A program made the translations under genes and the position numbers. A stretch of 64,000 nt of DNA from a virus: IMG/VR virus record IMGVR_UViG_3300003154_000789, positions 61,331 to 125,330 of that record; one strand, given 5' to 3'. Position 1 is the stretch's first letter. Each line of letters begins with the position of its first letter. Under the pieces are notes generated by a model that did no database searches, had not been told where the DNA came from, and saw only the letters and a list, made by a program, of their open reading frames with translations. Of this stretch, positions 1-61,454 are shown piece after piece.

Positions 1-394
1 ATTGAAGCGTAGCCTCAGGATCGAAATTCAAAGCCTCATCGATAGCTTTTTCCATGGCGGCAGCTGGAGTCATATTTCTCCACTCGTAGTCGTCTACGGC
101 ATTCAATAACCCACGCAGATACTTACGCTGAGTATCGTTCAGAATGCTGTTACTTTCTCCAGCATGAAATCTTCCAACACGACCACGTTTATTCCTTTTC
201 AATTCCGGTTCTTCGCCCTTATAATACATAGGCTCCCCGAAAAAAGATGAAGCTGACATACATATCAATCTCAAGAGCGGAGACTTGATATCGTAAGCTG
301 GTCCACCCATAAAGTTCATGTGGGTATCTTTAGGAATTTCCAAAACATCACTCGGTGTTGCTCTAAGCACTGTTTTCTTTTTGTTTATGCTCAT
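1..394 (-). CDS. Ro60/TROVE-domain RNA-binding protein, N-terminal part (runs off left edge)
   Basis: Manual translation from ATG at 394 (RBS GGAGG): MSINKKKTVLRATPSDVLEIPKDTHMNFMGGPAYDIKSPLLRLICMSASSFFGEPMYY..., open to position 2. The N-x-x-GG-x-AY...S-F-x-GE-x-x-YY pattern matches the TROVE N-terminus. Not in the ORF track. Confidence 0.75.
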   Translation of the reverse strand, partial: MSINKKKTVLRATPSDVLEIPKDTHMNFMGGPAYDIKSPLLRLICMSASSFFGEPMYYKGEEPELKRNKRGRVGRFHAGESNSILNDTQRKYLRGLLNAVDDYEWRNMTPAAAMEKAIDEALNFDPEATLQ

Positions 395-686: not shown

Positions 687-708
687 AAATCTTGCTTCCT
701 CTTTTTTG

Positions 709-783
709 AGTCCCTAGCAGGATTCGAACCTGCGACACAGAGGGTAGAAACCTCTTGCTCTTATTCCACTGAGCTATAGGGAC
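709..783 (-). tRNA. tRNA-Arg(UCU), no encoded CCA
   Basis: Acceptor GTCCCTA/TAGGGAC, D arm GCTC/GAGC, anticodon arm AGAGG-TTTCTAC-CCTCT, T arm GCAGG-TTCGAAT-CCTGC. Confidence 0.93.
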
Positions 784-6617: not shown

Positions 6618-6645
6618 CTGATAACTCCTTTATTTAATTGACTTG

Positions 6646-6720
6646 TCTGGTCGGCAAGATTTGAACTTGCGATCTGATGCGTCCAAGGCACCCGCGGTAA
6701 CCAGGCTCCGCTACGACCAG
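6646..6720 (-). tRNA. tRNA-Pro(UGG), no encoded CCA
   Basis: CTGGTCG/CGACCAG acceptor; GGTGC-CTTGGAC-GCATC anticodon arm; GCAAG-TTCAAAT-CTTGC T arm. Confidence 0.92.
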
Positions 6721-6727
6721 TTTGTGC

Positions 6728-6868
6728 GTGGAGAGAATTTTTTAACAACAGTATTGTCTTATGACTCTTGCTCTACCAGCTGAGCTACATTCCTATTTAA
6801 GGAATGATGAGATTCGAACTCATGACACAGAATTTTGAATGAAGTAACTGTTATCTTCACTGCTCCAC
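6728..6868 (-). ncRNA. Y-RNA-like ncRNA 1 (YrlA-like) with circularly permuted tRNA-like module
   Basis: Terminal stem GUGGAG/CUCCAC; CAGUGAAG...GUUACUUCA motif; T arm (6807-6823) precedes a hairpin-closed acceptor-like stem (6788-6806), then a D arm (6770-6785). Confidence 0.8.
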
Positions 6869-6870
6869 TT

Positions 6871-6942
6871 TTGCGGGGGTGGGAATCGAACCCACGTATC
6901 CAGATTTATGAGACCTAGTTGGCGACCAACAGCCTCCCCGCG
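6871..6942 (-). tRNA. tRNA-Met(CAU), initiator-like but atypical
   Basis: CGCGGGG/CCCCGCA acceptor with C1:A72 mismatch as in fMet; loop CTCATAA; T arm GTGGG-TTCGATT-CCCAC; short D arm. Confidence 0.75.
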
Positions 6943-6948
6943 ATAAAA

Positions 6949-7944: not shown

Positions 7945-8210
7945 TGTTTTTTCCTCTATGAAACAAAAAACCCCCGTCAATTTTCGTTGGCGAGGGTTCA
8001 AAGAAATCAATGAATATTCAGACGCTAATCTCTTCTATTACCCCCGATGTGTATTGGGTATAAATATCCTGTTAACCTTGTGGGTATTAAGTAATATCTA
8101 TTTTCGATTTGATTAATCCGTCTTTTCATCTTTTCCTTTTAAGTTAATAAAACCAACGTGGAACGATGGTTCAACTCTTTGATCCCTTGGATCATGAGAT
8201 AAAAAAGTAA

Positions 8211-8347
8211 GTGGAGAGAACATTTGGAACAGGGTTTTTGTTTTAGCTTCCCAGGCAAGATTTTTTGGGGCCGGGGATAGGATTTGCACCTATAATCTAT
8301 TCATTATGATTGAATTGCTGAAGTATCTGTACCTTTCACTACTCCAC
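8211..8347 (-). ncRNA. Y-RNA-like ncRNA 2
   Basis: GUGGAG/CUCCAC terminal stem; UAGUGAAA...AUACUUCA motif; GGUACAG/CUGUUCC inner stem; T-arm-like AUAGG-UGCAAAU-CCUAU at 8277-8293. Confidence 0.7.
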
Positions 8348-8589
8348 TACTTGTTGGTCACTGTCGCTACGCCTTCCTCATTGCTGAGGGCATTGGGTCT
8401 CTCCCAACCACCTTTGACCTGAACTATTGAACAGGTTGTGATCAAGTTTTCCGGGTACTCCAGAGCTAACCGGGTTTATAACACTTCTGGATAGTGTCGA
8501 AGTGAGTATTCTGTCTAAGTTTTATTCCTCACATAACCTACTTACGTCAGAGCCACACTGTGGATGCTTTACACAGGTTCTAATCTTCA

Positions 8590-8790
8590 TTAAGCCTTTA
8601 CAACATTGACTGCTGCAGGACCTTTGTCGCCCTGTTCAATGTCAAAAGAAACTTTGTCGCCTTCAGCCAAGGATTTAAACCCATCAGCTTTGATAGCGGA
8701 AAAATGTACGAATACATCTTTACCATTAGCTTGTTCGATGAAGCCAAAACCCTTGCTGTCATTGAACCATTTAACGATACCGTTTGCCAT
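8590..8790 (-). CDS. cspA: cold-shock protein
   Basis: [13 protein letters not shown]...DVFVHFSAI (RNP1/RNP2); strong RBS AAGGAGG. Confidence 0.96.
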
Positions 8791-8909
8791 TTACGTATAA
8801 CACCTCCTTTTAGTTTATTTTTTGTTTCACTGCCAAGGGTGTTACATAGCGAACGGTATTGCTAGCGAACGGAACTGTATTGCCTTGTACTTATGATGAA
8901 ACTTAAAGA

Positions 8910-8979
8910 GCGGAGAGACACTTCGAATACGGTGTTGTTTTCATTTCCATTGAAGTAACCGTGTTCTTCACTGCTCCAC
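8910..8979 (-). ncRNA. Y-RNA-like ncRNA 3 (minimal copy)
   Basis: GUGGAG/CUCCGC stem; CAGUGAAG...GUUACUUCA motif; GAACACGGU/ACCGUAUUC inner stem. Confidence 0.7.
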
Positions 8980-8986
8980 TACTTAT

Positions 8987-9167
8987 GACAGAGAGATTAT
9001 TTGAAGTTCGGAGATAAACAAGTCGCGGCTTTCATGGAGAAGCCCGCAGCAACCCACGACACATATGTTTTATGTCGCAAAATTAACAGGAACAAACTCT
9101 ATTATACACCAATATACAATTTACAATTGTAGTTATATGAAGTATCCGAATATCTCACTACTCTGTC
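8987..9167 (-). ncRNA. Y-RNA-like ncRNA 4 (multi-hairpin insert)
   Basis: GACAGAG/CUCUGUC stem; UAGUGAG...AUACUUCA motif; UUCGGA/UCCGAA inner stem; internal hairpins. Confidence 0.65.
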
Positions 9168-9214
9168 TATGAATAACGTCTCTTGAAGAGACGATAATTC
9201 CTTTCATATTTTAA

Positions 9215-9242
9215 AGATAATCATTCTCTTGTATTTGTCAAG
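9215..9242 (-). promoter_or_regulatory. putative sigma70-type promoter upstream of the ncRNA/csp cluster
   Basis: TTGACA (9242-9237), 16-nt spacer, TATCTT (9220-9215) on the minus strand in AT-rich intergenic DNA. Confidence 0.45.
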
Positions 9243-9454
9243 AGGAAAAAATAATTATCCTGTATTTATTATGAGGTTAGTTTATTATCCAAGATATCCA
9301 ACATTGGATAGAAGATTTTCCACGCTTTCCGGTTGCTTGACTAGCATGCCTCGTGTAGAACGAAAAGTTTCAGAATTAATAAATCCACTTTCCCTTGCAT
9401 CAGATAAAAAATAATATAGACACGATGCGTAACTACAGTTAAATACATGTTTTA

Positions 9455-9690: not shown

Positions 9691-11133
9691 TTATTCAAAC
9701 TTCCGGCAATCTTCCTCATCGCTCTCATAGCTTTGAATATTGCCGTGTAGATACTCAGTTGTGAGCTTTAATAAATCAAGCTCATTGTTCAGTTTCGGAT
9801 CATCAAGAACTCTATTAAGGAGAAATTTCAAGATATTTCCTATTTGAATTCCTGGCTTCAAATTGAAGATTTCCATGAGTTTATTCCCATTTATCTTCAA
9901 GTCTCTTATTTCGAAGCCATTGCTTTCACGATAGATCTCCAATATTTTATGCTCAAAATCTTTCTGTCTTTCTGTGACAGCGACCCCTTTAAGCCCATTA
10001 CCGAGTCTTTCAGCAGCACGTAGTTTGAACAGTGGAAAGTTACCTATCTTTCCCTCTGTCATATATTCTTTTCCTATTTCAACTCTTCGGATGAATTTAC
10101 GTATAGCTGAATCTGTCCACTCGCGTGTGAAATGAAACATGTGAAACTTAACAAGCATAAGAACCTGCTTTGTAGTTTCTGCATCATATTTTAGACGTCT
10201 AAGAAAATCTCGTGCTAACTTGGCACTAACCATCTCGTGTTTGTGAAACGTGGTTCTCTTTTCGTGATCATCTTTGGTTACTCTCCGAGTTTCTGGCTTC
10301 CCAATATCGTGTAGCAAGCCAGCCAATCTTATTACCAAATTACTTTCACAATGATCAACAGTGTAAATGAGATGGTTAAACACGTCATATTTATGATATT
10401 TGTTGTCCTGTTTGACTCCTACACAGGCATCCAATTCCGGAGATATGTATTCAAGTAACCCGACTCGTCTTAAAAATCGAAGGTATTTACTTGGTCTTTT
10501 AGACATCAGGATTTTATTGAACTCTGCTCTGATAACTTCTACCGGGCATTTGCTAATTAAAGCTGCGTTGCTTTTTATAGCGTCGATCAATTCATTGTTG
10601 ATTGTGTATTCTGTACGAGCAGAAAGTGATATTGCACGAAGCATACGAATTGGAGATTCTTTAATACGCTCATTTGGACTACCATTAGAAGACAATCTTC
10701 TATTTACAATGTCTTTTCTACCGCCAACAAGATCGATTATATCCTTTTTGGACGAAAAATTAATCGGTAAATAAAGAGCATTTATTTTAAAATCTCTGAA
10801 TCTTACATCTTGTTGCAAAGTGTTGCTTGGATCTGAGAGTTGTTTCTTACCTTTTCTTGGTAAAGTAATTTGTGCCTCTATTGGATCATCAAAAGCTTTA
10901 AACAGTATGATGTTGATTTCAAATAGATCACTGGTTCTAGCCAAACTAACCTCTTTTATGCTCCCATATTGCCGCAAGAATGTCTTTATACTCTTTAAGG
11001 ACAGATTTCTTACAACAATATCCAAATCTGAATTACTTTTGTTTCTCAAAAAATCCCGCACAAAACCACCAACAATGAATACCTCTGCTTTTGTCTCTCT
11101 ATCGAGACGCTGCAATACTTCGATGGTTTTCAT
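9691..11133 (-). CDS. CCA-adding/poly(A) polymerase-family nucleotidyltransferase with HD domain
   Basis: GGFVRD...DLDI (motif A), RDFKINAL, RMLRAI, HKYDVFNH...LLHDIGKP (HD); likely start MKTIEV at 11133. Confidence 0.9.
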   Translation of the reverse strand: MKTIEVLQRLDRETKAEVFIVGGFVRDFLRNKSNSDLDIVVRNLSLKSIKTFLRQYGSIKEVSLARTSDLFEINIILFKAFDDPIEAQITLPRKGKKQLSDPSNTLQQDVRFRDFKINALYLPINFSSKKDIIDLVGGRKDIVNRRLSSNGSPNERIKESPIRMLRAISLSARTEYTINNELIDAIKSNAALISKCPVEVIRAEFNKILMSKRPSKYLRFLRRVGLLEYISPELDACVGVKQDNKYHKYDVFNHLIYTVDHCESNLVIRLAGLLHDIGKPETRRVTKDDHEKRTTFHKHEMVSAKLARDFLRRLKYDAETTKQVLMLVKFHMFHFTREWTDSAIRKFIRRVEIGKEYMTEGKIGNFPLFKLRAAERLGNGLKGVAVTERQKDFEHKILEIYRESNGFEIRDLKINGNKLMEIFNLKPGIQIGNILKFLLNRVLDDPKLNNELDLLKLTTEYLHGNIQSYESDEEDCRKFE

Positions 11134-11161
11134 TTTATTTTTTATCTCCTTTACAGATTTA

Positions 11162-11486
11162 CGATTTCCTATTTTATTTTTTTGATGATTTTTTATCTTT
11201 CGACCACGATGATGGTCTATCCAGTGGGCATACTTCGGGATCACACGCTACGGGAAACTTGCATTTTATGAGCTTATGTTCACAAGTATCGTCTTCTTCC
11301 CCCAAAAATTCACAGTCATTTCTTAATACATCCCACAGTTTTTCGGCCTCATCGGACCTCTGGTTGAATATTTTGGATTGTTTTGTCAATATTTTCACTT
11401 CTTTCTTGAGATATTTTAGCCTTTCTATATCCATAGCGAATTCCCGTTTTATTTTTTTTGAAGATTTTTTATCCTACGACCATGAT
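11162..11486. repeat. imperfect ~50-bp direct repeat pair (about 11162-11213 and 11438-11486)
   Basis: cgatttcctattttatttttttgatgattttttatctttcgaccacgat vs cgaattcccgttttattttttttgaagattttttatcctacgaccatgat. Confidence 0.6.
11174..11434 (-). CDS. hypothetical protein
   Basis: ORF with Cys cluster CEHKLIKCKFPVACDPEVC. Confidence 0.55.
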   Translation of the reverse strand: MDIERLKYLKKEVKILTKQSKIFNQRSDEAEKLWDVLRNDCEFLGEEDDTCEHKLIKCKFPVACDPEVCPLDRPSSWSKDKKSSKK

Positions 11487-59874: not shown

Positions 59875-61454
59875 TTAATCTTCCGAATCGCCCGCTTTTA
59901 AGTTCATTATTGGTTTGACTCGATGAAGGATCTTTGCCGTTGGTGAAATAGCTGCCTCAATGATCTCAGCTGGCTTGTACGCCCCTTTAAGTTCATCGGT
60001 TGGCAATACACTTGTGTAGATACCCTTGGCTGCCATAGAGGCTCTGGCTTCCTCTAAGTTCAACTTTTCCTTGGCAATAGTTCTTGAATACAGACGACCC
60101 GCACCATGAGGAGCAGAAAAGTTCCACTCGGAGTTTCCCTTACCCTCACAGACCAGAATACCATCTTCCATATTGAAGGGAAGGATAAATTTTTCTCCGG
60201 CGTAAGCAGAGACAGCACCTTTGCGGATGATGAAATCTTTGTAATTGATACAGTTATGAACTGTAGTTATCCTTTCGAAGATGTGATCCTCTCGTACACG
60301 CAGTTCTTCAAGGATAGCCTTCATCATAACTTGATGACTCATGTACGCATACCAATTAGCGAAGATAGTATCAATGAGGTACCCATACATGTGCTCACCG
60401 TGTAGAGGTTCAAGACCCTTAGGTGTCTTTGGTACCATATCACGGACACCTTGAAACATTTCCTGCCACTTTTCCTTGGGCTGTTTCTCTTTGATTAAAT
60501 CAAACATCTCGGTCATTGCAACGGACTTCTTGTTTTTCAGGTCTTTTACTGCAATGTCTTGCCAGTATGTGGCGATACGCAGACCTAGATTACGAGAGCC
60601 GGAATGGGTGGTTATACAAGGATAGCTTCTCTCGTCTATGCCGATTTCAATGAAATGATTCAGTTGTTTGTTACTACTATTCGATTCGAATAGCGGATAG
60701 GTCATTTCTGCCTATCTCTCCGGCTTCATTTTATTATCCCGGAGGTCGGACTGTCGCTTATCTTTCGATCTTCTTCACTCAGTCTCTCACGGCACATGCA
60801 TGCATGTTTCCGCCCTGTCGTCCATTTTTATAGGACTTCCAAGTCAATCAGAAGAAGTTTCGGTATTAAACACAAACACTTTGGACCCGGAGGCAATCAT
60901 TTACCACCACCCAAGGTGCCGATAGAATTGATAACATACTGAGCGAAGTCCTTCTTCTTCTTTCTGATGGATACCCTTTCACAGAGTGAAAGAAACCAAT
61001 CAAGATCGATTTTTGGACAACGGTGCTTGCTGCCATATCGTTTGTTGAACGCCAACGTAAACTCGACAGCTTCTTTCTGTACTGTTGCCCAGGGAAAATC
61101 GTTCTTCATGTCGAGCTGTGGTTTGGGATGTACTTCTCCACCCATTGGTATCCTGGCACGTATTCTCTGGTCAAGTTTGTCAAAATCAATACCGCTTAAG
61201 ACGATTGGATCCAATCGCACCATATGCATTTGGCAATAAAGATCAACGCCAACAACATTTGGAATTACATTATCCCCCATAGGCATAGTAAAACCGATGA
61301 CAGCACCTTTGCCAGCATGAGTATCAGGCATGATTTTGATAGGATTGATAAATGAATAGTTGTTTATAAACGCATAAATCTGGCTGGTTGTTGTCTCATC
61401 TATATTATCAATCATTACATCTGCTGTTGTGTACTTTCCTTTGAAGGTGAGCAT
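59875..61454 (-). CDS. rtcB: RtcB 3'-phosphate RNA ligase, two exons (61454-60903 and 60660-59875; 445 aa spliced)
   Basis: MPDTHAGKG, VGVDLYC, GTLGGG|NHFIE, THSGSR, HN, RKGA, SAPHGAGR, DE...AYK. Confidence 0.93.
60661..60902 (-). ncRNA. group I self-splicing intron (242 nt, no ORF) in rtcB
   Basis: Exon ends in U, intron ends in G; P1 with U.G wobble; 6-bp P10 (AUGAUU/AAUCAU); P3 CUUCUUC/GAAGAAG; P7 GACUG/CAGUC; P8 and P9 hairpins; removal restores the frame and GGGNH. Confidence 0.92.

Follow-up and report, generated by a model that had tools for sequence, protein, structure and literature searches.

A probable YrlA-class Y RNA encoded between two tRNA genes of a virus distantly related to Bacillus phage G

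YrlA RNAs (Rfam RF02553) have been described from Salmonella Typhimurium, Mycobacterium smegmatis, and >250 bacteria (Chen et al. 2014), and a YrlA structure is available (6CU1; Wang et al. 2018). Y RNAs are described as modular, with a stem that binds Ro60 and a domain that binds an effector. It has been proposed that the YrlAs have an ancient tRNA origin (PMC4201824; bioRxiv 10.1101/312249), which is possible, and Y RNAs adjoining tRNAs have been noted in some bacteria (bioRxiv 10.1101/312249). Systems related to the one considered here, as presented in PMC4201824 and PMC12135203, are Rsr-Y RNA-PNPase of Deinococcus, the rsr-yrlBA-rtcBA operon of Salmonella, and Ro60-Yrl-PNPase of Thermus phage phiLo. 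In the phiLo report, recruitment of the host PNPase is proposed for the phage Ro60, and Bacillus phage G is named as bearing a YrlA (PMC12135203, citing Chen et al. 2014, PMC4201824).

The DNA analyzed here (the window, 64,000 nucleotides) is part of a 141.5-kb viral contig that is judged about half complete and is distantly related to Bacillus phage G. The contig occurs mainly in groundwater metagenomes, and ponds and other freshwater sites contain traces of it. Because the tRNAs of this region lie on the minus strand, the minus strand was read for the element of interest, here called Y1 (6868..6728, 141 nt). Judged from its sequence and from those of its relatives, Y1 is quite probably a YrlA-class Y RNA and the RNA partner of a phage-encoded Ro60 (Rsr/TROVE).

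The N-terminal part of the Ro60/TROVE gene lies at positions 1..394 on the minus strand; the gene starts at 394, continues past the window edge, and encodes 555 amino acids. The protein matches Pfam TROVE at 33 bits (cut-off, 23), shares 41% identity with gp540 of Bacillus phage G, and matches the Thermus phage phiLo Ro60 structures 9KOP and 9L5Y (E 2e-12). The gene starts 6.3 kb downstream of Y1 on the same strand, farther away than the 4-kb criterion used for YrlA (Chen et al. 2014), a criterion that holds for the RNA family as a whole among the matches listed.

Fold of Y1 and its match to YrlA

Y1 extends from the first to the last base of its outer stem, and the same limits came out of an independent parse of the family members. 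Read 5' to 3' on the minus strand, to which all coordinates of its parts refer, Y1 opens with GUGGAG (6863..6868), the 5' strand of the outer helix H1, which forms six Watson-Crick pairs with CUCCAC at the 3' end (6728..6733). The 5' platform loop CAGUGAAG follows (6855..6862; YRGUGWAG in the family), in which a bulged pyrimidine precedes AGUG opposite UUCU, an arrangement that recurs in the family and in three further elements of the window, Y2 to Y4. The 5' strand of the inner helix H2 (AUAACAG, 6848..6854) pairs with CUGUUGU (6745..6751), a helix supported by RNAalifold and by pair counts, and leads directly into UUACUUC (6841..6847). In the Infernal alignment this motif falls on the AUGCU bulge of the GNCGAAN0-1G Ro60 site of RF02553, and CAG-UUAC of Y1 is placed at CGA-AUGC of the model.

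The sequence AUUCAAA separates UUACUUC from AUUCU (6829..6833), the 3' side of an anticodon-stem analogue (positions 39 to 43, the core being numbered by analogy with tRNA). Its partner, AGAGU (6764..6768; positions 27 to 31), was assigned from sequence and pair counts, and all five positions are paired, one of them as G-U. Enclosed by these two strands are, in order, the variable loop GUGUC (6824..6828; positions 44 to 48), the T arm AUGAG-UUCGAAU-CUCAU (6807..6823), which is supported by covariation, a closed acceptor-like hairpin CAUUCCU-UAAAU-AGGAAUG (6788..6806) of 7 bp with a 5-nt loop, UA with the D arm GCUC-AGCUGGUA-GAGC (6770..6787), which carries G18 and G19 and whose stem is conserved in the family, and a single A. 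A 12-nt junction connects AGAGU with CUGUUGU, after which the 3' platform loop UAAAAAAUUCU (6734..6744; ending in UUCY in the family), recognized from the family parse and the sequence, leads into the 3' strand of H1.

Every tRNA tertiary nucleotide looked for is present in Y1 (U8, A9, A14, G15, G18, G19, A21, G46, C48, and the T loop UUCGAAU), and by analogy with tRNA, C48 could make the Levitt pair with G15. Y1 has no anticodon loop; the anticodon-stem analogue extends into H2 and then H1 as one long stem, the extending strands being 36 and 41 nt long and forming a conserved platform. The earlier note on this DNA had described a variable loop, T arm, closed stem, and D arm in this order, with AGAGU/AUUCU running into a long closing stem in place of a loop, and had called this the YrlA architecture. 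The minus-strand sequence agrees with that description in every part and in their order, H2 and the inner pairs of the anticodon-stem analogue covary, and the architecture corresponds both to the published topology (PMC4201824; bioRxiv 10.1101/312249) and to a full-length match with RF02553.

The succession of T stem-loop, closed acceptor-like stem-loop, and D stem-loop is the permuted order of YrlA. ARAGORN reports no tRNA in the native order of Y1; when the acceptor-5'/D/anticodon-5' half is joined to the anticodon-3'/variable/T/acceptor-3' half around a generic 7-nt loop, it reports a 73-nt tRNA with three of three loops. The Y1 core is therefore truly a circularly permuted cloverleaf.

In a permissive scan, RF02553 matched Y1 at 6854..6739 over model positions 1-114 of 114 with 47 bits (E 1.5e-9 in a 401-nt search and 1.2e-10 in the whole contig). 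This score is below the gathering score of 69, and an Rfam scan of the window at gathering thresholds returned only tRNAs and a cspA element, with YrlA absent. On the seven family copies tested, RF02553 gave 21 to 47 bits, all below 69, with 36 bits for the phage G copy. It found nothing in the relatives G002, G003, G006, and G007; on loci fetched from these, the family model R1 gave only weak matches, in locus L011 (of G002). Weak RF02553 matches at contig positions 29067-29175 and 30550-30670 were rejected as tandem-tRNA artifacts, since they overlap a Thr-Ser and a Ser-Asn tRNA pair, and so were matches at 119005 and 114400 of viral contig G001 and at the contig end (307030) of G004. The same explanation was rejected for Y1, as ARAGORN shows no tRNA overlapping 6728-6868. 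The canonical Ro60-site motif GNCGAAN0-1G (PMC4201824) occurs neither in Y1 nor within the first 35 nt of any of the 40 aligned family members. The low Rfam score, the missing GNCGAA motif, and the distance of more than 4 kb from the TROVE gene show that the current model and criteria overlook this phage branch; they do not imply a different kind of RNA.

The viral RNA family and its platform

Relatives were sought with a pattern made up of the motif CAGUUACUUC at the end of the 5' strand and of anchors in the T loop and D arm. The motif scan matched at least 119 viral stretches, and about 100 of the matches listed have a clean closed hairpin between the T and D arms, with unrelated stem sequences. 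Eight loci (L026, L030, L069, L084, L089, L104, L118, and L135) were chance pattern matches in coding DNA and were dropped. The family comprises at least 100 viral RNAs in IMG/VR, and to judge from the scores of the seven copies tested, the Rfam model probably overlooks the majority.

A TROVE gene was found by tblastn in 63 of 91 loci among the matches listed, usually 50 to 700 nt downstream of the RNA and on the same strand; those of the 91 that lack it are mostly short or chance matches. This linkage, together with the TROVE gene on the Y1 contig, is the strongest evidence from genomic context and does not figure in the earlier note. Related TROVE proteins in viral contigs have 41 to 77% identity, with YrlA-like RNAs directly upstream of the gene, including four copies in G001 and one copy, 144 nt upstream, in G005.

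Forty cleanly bounded members among the matches listed were aligned with MAFFT. From this alignment RNAalifold recovered H2, the T arm, the 7-bp acceptor-like stem, and the D arm, with compensatory double changes at 16 of 23 pairs. For a formal pair count, the inter-strand anticodon-stem analogue was added to the RNAalifold helices: 91.6% of the cells were paired, compared with 64.9% after shuffling and 38 to 45% with partners slid, and the covariation score was 0.673 versus 0.177, the former being reached by none of 500 shuffles. Compensatory changes occur at four of five pairs of the T arm (100% of cells paired) and at all seven pairs of the acceptor-like hairpin (91% of cells paired). Four variable pairs of H2 covary in the 40 sequences and its CAG/CUG pairs are invariant; seven of seven H2 positions are paired with their own partner in 76% of members, versus 13% with swapped partners. 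The inner two pairs of the anticodon-stem analogue covary in nearly all members, the outer three form pairs only in a Y1-like subset, and three of the four D-stem pairs are invariant in the 40 members.

The invariance of CAGUUACUYC, GUUCGA, and UAGCU in this alignment arises because the search pattern demanded them. Model R1 matches Y1 at 6869..6728 with 105 bits, a score reached by construction because the Y1 sequence is in its seed. Ragged ends were left unaligned by MAFFT, so that H1 was not counted in the pair statistics; family controls for this helix (swapped partner and shuffle) gave a modest separation, with a mean longest helix of 8.1 versus 6.5. H1 therefore rests mainly on its position beside conserved loops and on the four paralogues.

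The family parse gives a 5' platform frame of H1, the loop YRGUGWAG, a 7-bp helix ending in CAG, and UUACUUC, and a 3' frame of CUG with the remaining helix strand, a loop whose last bases are UUCY, and H1. Set against each other, the two loops form a bulged pyrimidine followed by R-Y, G-C, U-U, and G-U. Three paralogues of Y1 follow this frame: Y2 (8348..8209; 42 bits with R1), Y3 (8980..8909; 23 bits with R1), and Y4 (9167..8987), which was recognized by eye. H1 is identical in Y2 and near-identical in Y3, and Y4 has a different complementary sequence at this place; the YAGUGA loop and (U/A)UACUUCA are common to all four. The inner-helix sequences differ among Y1 to Y4, with one or two mismatches in each of Y2, Y3, and Y4, and only Y1 has a complete tRNA-like apex. 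Because one platform with different apices corresponds to the modular design described for Y RNAs, the platform is predicted to be the Ro60-binding part. Together, the TROVE linkage of the RNA family and a platform shared with paralogues that are not tRNA-like point to Ro60 binding as the common function.

Genomic setting, maturation, and alternative readings

Y1 fills the gap between tRNA-Met(CAU) and tRNA-Pro(UGG), as the earlier note had stated. ARAGORN places tRNA-Met(CAU) at 6870..6943 on the minus strand, with an initiator-like acceptor (CGCGGGG...CCCCGCA), and this tRNA is absent from the tRNA matches of the Rfam scans; tRNA-Pro(UGG) lies at 6645..6720 on the same strand (ARAGORN; 60.5 bits with Rfam tRNA). 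The spacers are 1 to 3 nt on the tRNA-Met side and 7 nt (GCACAAA) on the tRNA-Pro side, and neither tRNA has an encoded CCA. Simple scans from the upstream ORF through tRNA-Met, Y1, and tRNA-Pro to the next ORF found no promoter- or terminator-like site. The cotranscription with the tRNAs that had been suggested is plausible given the shared strand, the short spacers, and these scans. Among the matches listed, 9 of 39 bounded members lie with one end no more than 30 nt from a tRNA, and the copy in L142 is wedged between tRNA-Glu (6 nt) and tRNA-Thr (8 nt), so that tight embedding in tRNA arrays recurs in the family.

Two strings of Y1, GAGCAAGAG and CUGUGUC, are shared with tRNA-Arg(UCU) at 783..708, as had been noticed before, and derivation of Y1 from a local tRNA had been considered. 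The similarity scores speak against this origin: family members from unrelated contigs (30 to 31) outscore tRNA-Arg(UCU) (28), the best of the local tRNAs, and for the D-side and T-side segments of Y1 the family median is 24, versus a local-tRNA median of 14. GAGCAAGAG also occurs in family members L034 and L079, and GUGUC variable loops recur in the family. These scores and shared strings suggest that the Y1 core was inherited within the Y RNA family; recent copying from the neighboring tRNA-Arg(UCU) is unsupported, as family members are more similar.

The closest relative, L011, has a TROVE protein that is 77% identical, keeps the order tRNA-Pro, Ile(UAU), Leu(UAA), Arg(UCU), TROVE, Tyr, and contains a full-length orthologue (62% identical) of the ORF upstream of tRNA-Met. 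Neither tRNA-Met nor Y1 is present at this site in L011, where the upstream ORF almost abuts tRNA-Pro, and Y2 is likewise missing. This arrangement indicates that tRNA-Met and Y1 together (~225 bp) are an insertion or deletion between close relatives, and that Y1 is either dispensable in at least one lineage or encoded elsewhere there.

Contigs of related groundwater strains differ from Y1 at three places. A T>C variant at 6805 turns an acceptor A-U pair into G-U, a G>A variant at 6862 turns the bulged C into U, which is still the family consensus, and one base is deleted in the A run of the 3' platform loop. The contig that covers tRNA-Pro and Y1 has, over 252 nt, 4 differences and 4 gaps of one base each; in one that covers the upstream ORF, 32 of 195 positions (~16%) are changed. 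Set against the ORF divergence, the structure-neutral variants of Y1 fit purifying selection on the RNA, with the qualification that the RNA and ORF contigs possibly come from different strains.

ARAGORN identified 27 tRNAs, one CUA-anticodon tRNA, and one tmRNA on the contig, which also carries an RtcB gene in two pieces 242 nt apart and, on the same strand as Y1 and about 3 kb upstream, the gene for a CCA-adding enzyme with an HD domain (517 aa; 9691-11244, minus strand). With these tRNAs, RtcB, and the CCA-adding enzyme in one phage, tRNA quality control or repair is most likely the setting of Y1.

Comparative analysis demonstrates, at the level of sequence, the fold of Y1, its family membership, the TROVE link, and the shared platform. 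The size of the phage family, the distinct platform, the paralogue arrays that share it, and the recurrent embedding in tRNA operons go beyond the searchable literature. A literature search for the strings UUACUUC and CAGUUAC returned nothing relevant, megablast of the Y1 locus against 50,697 phage records gave no match, and a run search found the locus in no RNA-seq run.

Y1 is probably released through tRNA processing and bound by the phage Ro60. The upstream ORF, tRNA-Met, Y1, and tRNA-Pro would be carried on one transcript. RNase Z or an equivalent would cut behind the tRNA-Met discriminator and thereby give the 5' end of Y1, and RNase P acting at the 5' end of tRNA-Pro would set its 3' end, leaving a 7-nt 3' tail. 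The released species would be about 141 to 149 nt long, with its ends sealed by H1. The phage Ro60 ring would then bind the platform, and the tRNA-like apex may recruit a protein able to recognize the tRNA elbow together with the acceptor/T minihelix. If bacterial Rsr-YrlA and phage phiLo Ro60-Yrl-PNPase are a guide, this would couple Ro60 to an RNA-processing or -degrading enzyme during infection.

A more far-reaching version of this scheme, unlikely when taken as a whole, would combine three elements. The phage-G-like platform (bulged pyrimidine, RGUG opposite UUCY, and CAG-UUACUUC) would be a Ro60-binding site that differs from GNCGAA; Y1 would be matured wholly by the tRNA machinery, through excision from the tRNA operon by RNase P and RNase Z, an RNase P nick, and a CCA tail; and the split mimic would link the phage Ro60 to the phage RtcB and CCA/HD enzyme and so counter tRNA-cleaving defenses of the host.

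It is improbable that Y1 matures into a tRNA mimic of two pieces, nicked and bearing a free CCA end added by the phage enzyme. The 7-bp acceptor and 5-bp T stem reproduce a tRNA minihelix, and RNase P would cut the acceptor hairpin 5' of AGGAAUG, after which the upstream half would be trimmed and CCA added; if this were the active form, it could engage CCA-dependent factors. The acceptor-like stem of Y1 is exactly 7 bp with U at -1, the family as a whole retains the seven pairs, and the gene for a CCA-adding enzyme lies nearby on the same strand. In M. smegmatis, RNase P cuts the YrlA, whose stem likewise measures 7 bp, and CCA is then added to it in vivo (PMC4201824). However, many family members cap this stem with stable tetraloops or long inserts, which suggests that the closed form is selected, and the Salmonella and Deinococcus Y RNAs are uncleaved.

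A role as a Ro60-independent decoy or sponge, for host enzymes or defense proteins that recognize the tRNA elbow or the acceptor/T minihelix, is quite improbable. The intact tRNA core nucleotides, the wealth of tRNA and RNA-repair genes in the phage, and the position of Y1 away from the TROVE gene would suit such a role, which is opposed by the platform, a non-tRNA structure common to three paralogues that are not tRNA-like, and by the tight TROVE linkage of the family. The earlier note had raised a decoy function toward tRNA-targeting nucleases and modifying enzymes, and no evidence for one was found; because Y1 lacks an anticodon loop to offer anticodon nucleases and has a closed acceptor end, it cannot mimic the usual targets of tRNA-directed defense nucleases.

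It is very improbable that Y1 is a nonfunctional relic of a rearranged tRNA or of tandem tRNAs, serving as a mere spacer between tRNAs of one transcript. A T-then-D order does arise from tandem tRNAs, as in the weak RF02553 artifacts on this contig, and L011 has no Y1 at the site. Yet the acceptor strands of Y1 form one closed hairpin, not two tRNA ends, the non-tRNA platform is conserved, and the strain variants are structure neutral next to an ORF with ~16% divergence; every helix has compensatory changes in the 40 sequences, and this covariation largely refutes a relic. That Y1 is a permuted tRNA gene whose product is circularized, for example by the phage RtcB, and reopened to an aminoacylatable tRNA as in the red alga Cyanidioschyzon merolae is scarcely credible, for although the re-ordered core reads as a tRNA in ARAGORN and the phage encodes RtcB, Y1 lacks an anticodon loop, its acceptor cap shows no bulge-helix-bulge motif, its stem continues into the Y-RNA platform, and its family is linked to TROVE.

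The phage RNA family, with at least 100 members in IMG/VR, offers many diverse sequences for finding conserved features, and one genome presents a clear modular design, with a common platform and interchangeable apical domains. The genomic setting, with dozens of tRNAs, RtcB, and a CCA-adding enzyme, suggests candidate effectors. In annotation, such elements in phage tRNA arrays are best entered as Y RNAs, not as odd tRNAs or gaps.

Comparison with known systems

In the permuted tRNA genes of C. merolae and in two-piece or permuted tmRNA, the 3' half of the tRNA-like fold precedes the 5' half, as in Y1. The RNAs of all these systems mature into a functional tRNA or tmRNA whose CCA end is free. 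Y1 differs from them in having neither an anticodon loop nor a known processing motif.

The likeness to YrlA extends through the core. Y1 shares with it the order of T arm, closed acceptor-like stem, and D arm, the lack of an anticodon loop, the anticodon-stem analogue formed from the 5' and 3' strands and continuing into a long stem, the elbow nucleotides, the GCUC/GAGC D stem, and a Ro60 orthologue encoded nearby; with M. smegmatis YrlA it also shares the 7-bp acceptor stem. In contrast to YrlA, Y1 reaches only 47 bits with RF02553, whose gathering score is 69; it has CAG-UUACUUC in place of GNCGAAN0-1G, an additional module on the outside (outer stem, bulged pyrimidine, and RGUG/UUCY), and a T stem of AUGAG/CUCAU where YrlA has GCGGG/CCCGC, and it lies between two tRNAs, 6.3 kb from the Ro60 gene.

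Thermus phage phiLo likewise combines a phage-encoded Ro60 with several phage Y-like RNAs (Yrl1 and Yrl2; PMC12135203), and its Ro60 is the closest solved structure to the 555-aa TROVE protein. Unlike Y1, the phiLo Yrls lie directly upstream of the Ro60 gene and were chosen for having a CGAA motif and a stem-bulge-stem shape; in the accessible part of that report they are not described as tRNA mimics (PMC12135203).

The RNA of phage G (NC_023719, about 405,190-405,350; 107 bits with R1) lies 2.1 kb upstream of the gp540 TROVE gene. Unlike Y1, it stands alone between two ORFs with a terminator-like hairpin behind it, and a 25-nt insert caps its acceptor stem. Phage G and the present contig have in common the CAGUUACUUC motif, the platform layout, the closed acceptor stem, and the D arm of the RNA, TROVE proteins that are 41% identical, and a tRNA-Arg(UCU) with a tRNA cluster in the same neighborhood. 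On these comparisons, Y1 is best filed as a YrlA of a phage-G-like subfamily from which one member was published as early as 2014.

Paralogues of Y1 and platform arrays in other viruses

The platform that closes Y1, a 141-nt YrlA-class Y RNA, is also present in three further Y-like RNAs of the window, all on the minus strand: Y2 (positions 8209 to 8348) and Y3 (8909 to 8980), matched at 42 and 23 bits, respectively, by the covariance model R1 of the viral RNA family, and Y4 (8987 to 9167), which was recognized by eye only. Besides the outer stem and the YAGUGA loop, each of these paralogues has (U/A)UACUUCA and an inner helix of its own, different from those of the other copies. A full tRNA-like apex was found in none of the three. 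The apex of Y2 is a T-arm-like hairpin only (UAUAGG-UGCAAAU-CCUAU), Y3 is a 72-nt minimal stem-loop, and the apical domain of Y4 spans about 120 nt.

Directly upstream of the TROVE gene, which encodes the Ro60 protein, both Bacillus phage G (locus L023, 11193 to 11816) and the viral contig G001 (locus L010, 8777 to 9784) have an array of three or four additional small RNAs with the platform. The phage G array lies in the 1-kb gap between gp539 and gp540, in which the phage G record annotates no feature. At L010 positions 9176 to 9250, flanked on both sides by Y RNAs of G001, lies a tRNA called by ARAGORN whose anticodon has four bases (aaac); its anticodon loop is 8 nt long, and its CCA end is encoded.

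Sequences adjoining the Y RNAs of the window

The tRNA-Met(CAU) beside Y1 (6870 to 6943, minus strand) was called by ARAGORN but is missing from the tRNA matches listed by Rfam, those of the permissive scan included. Its acceptor is initiator-like (CGCGGGG...CCCCGCA), which places C1 opposite A72; its D stem has 3 bp, and its anticodon stem lacks the three G-C pairs found in initiator tRNAs. Both this tRNA and Y1 are missing from the closest relative, L011.

A phage cold-shock-protein gene is located between Y3 and Y2, and this gene and its leader are spanned by an Rfam cspA thermoregulator match (8545 to 8914, minus strand) that scored 79.9 bits, slightly above the threshold of 78. Between cspA and Y2 lies a non-coding stretch (8353 to 8481, minus strand) that shares 82% identity, across 130 nt, with positions 112 to 239 of L011 and for which no Rfam match was found. 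It is predicted to be closed by a stem, UUGAUCAC/GUGAUCAA, although two sequences are too few to judge this pairing. The stretch may represent a further small RNA or an element of a 3' UTR.

Other RNA-related genes on the contig

The RtcB RNA ligase gene (59896 to 61349, minus strand) consists of two in-frame pieces with 242 nt between them. Elsewhere on the same contig, outside the window, ARAGORN called a tmRNA-like gene (G000:C1:37263-37658) and a tRNA with a CUA anticodon (G000:C1:43028-43103), a possible amber suppressor.

Anticodon-loop-like hairpins in the family

In many family members on viral contigs (L050, L027, L032, L044, L048, and others), only about 10 nt separate the D arm from the CUG of inner helix H2. 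In these short-spacer members, a local hairpin of 5 bp, closed by the UUC of UUACUUC, presents a 7-nt loop of the form CUNNNAA, which is anticodon-loop-like, so that they may mimic all four arms of a tRNA. Some members of the family, such as L082, are overlapped by ARAGORN tRNA calls.
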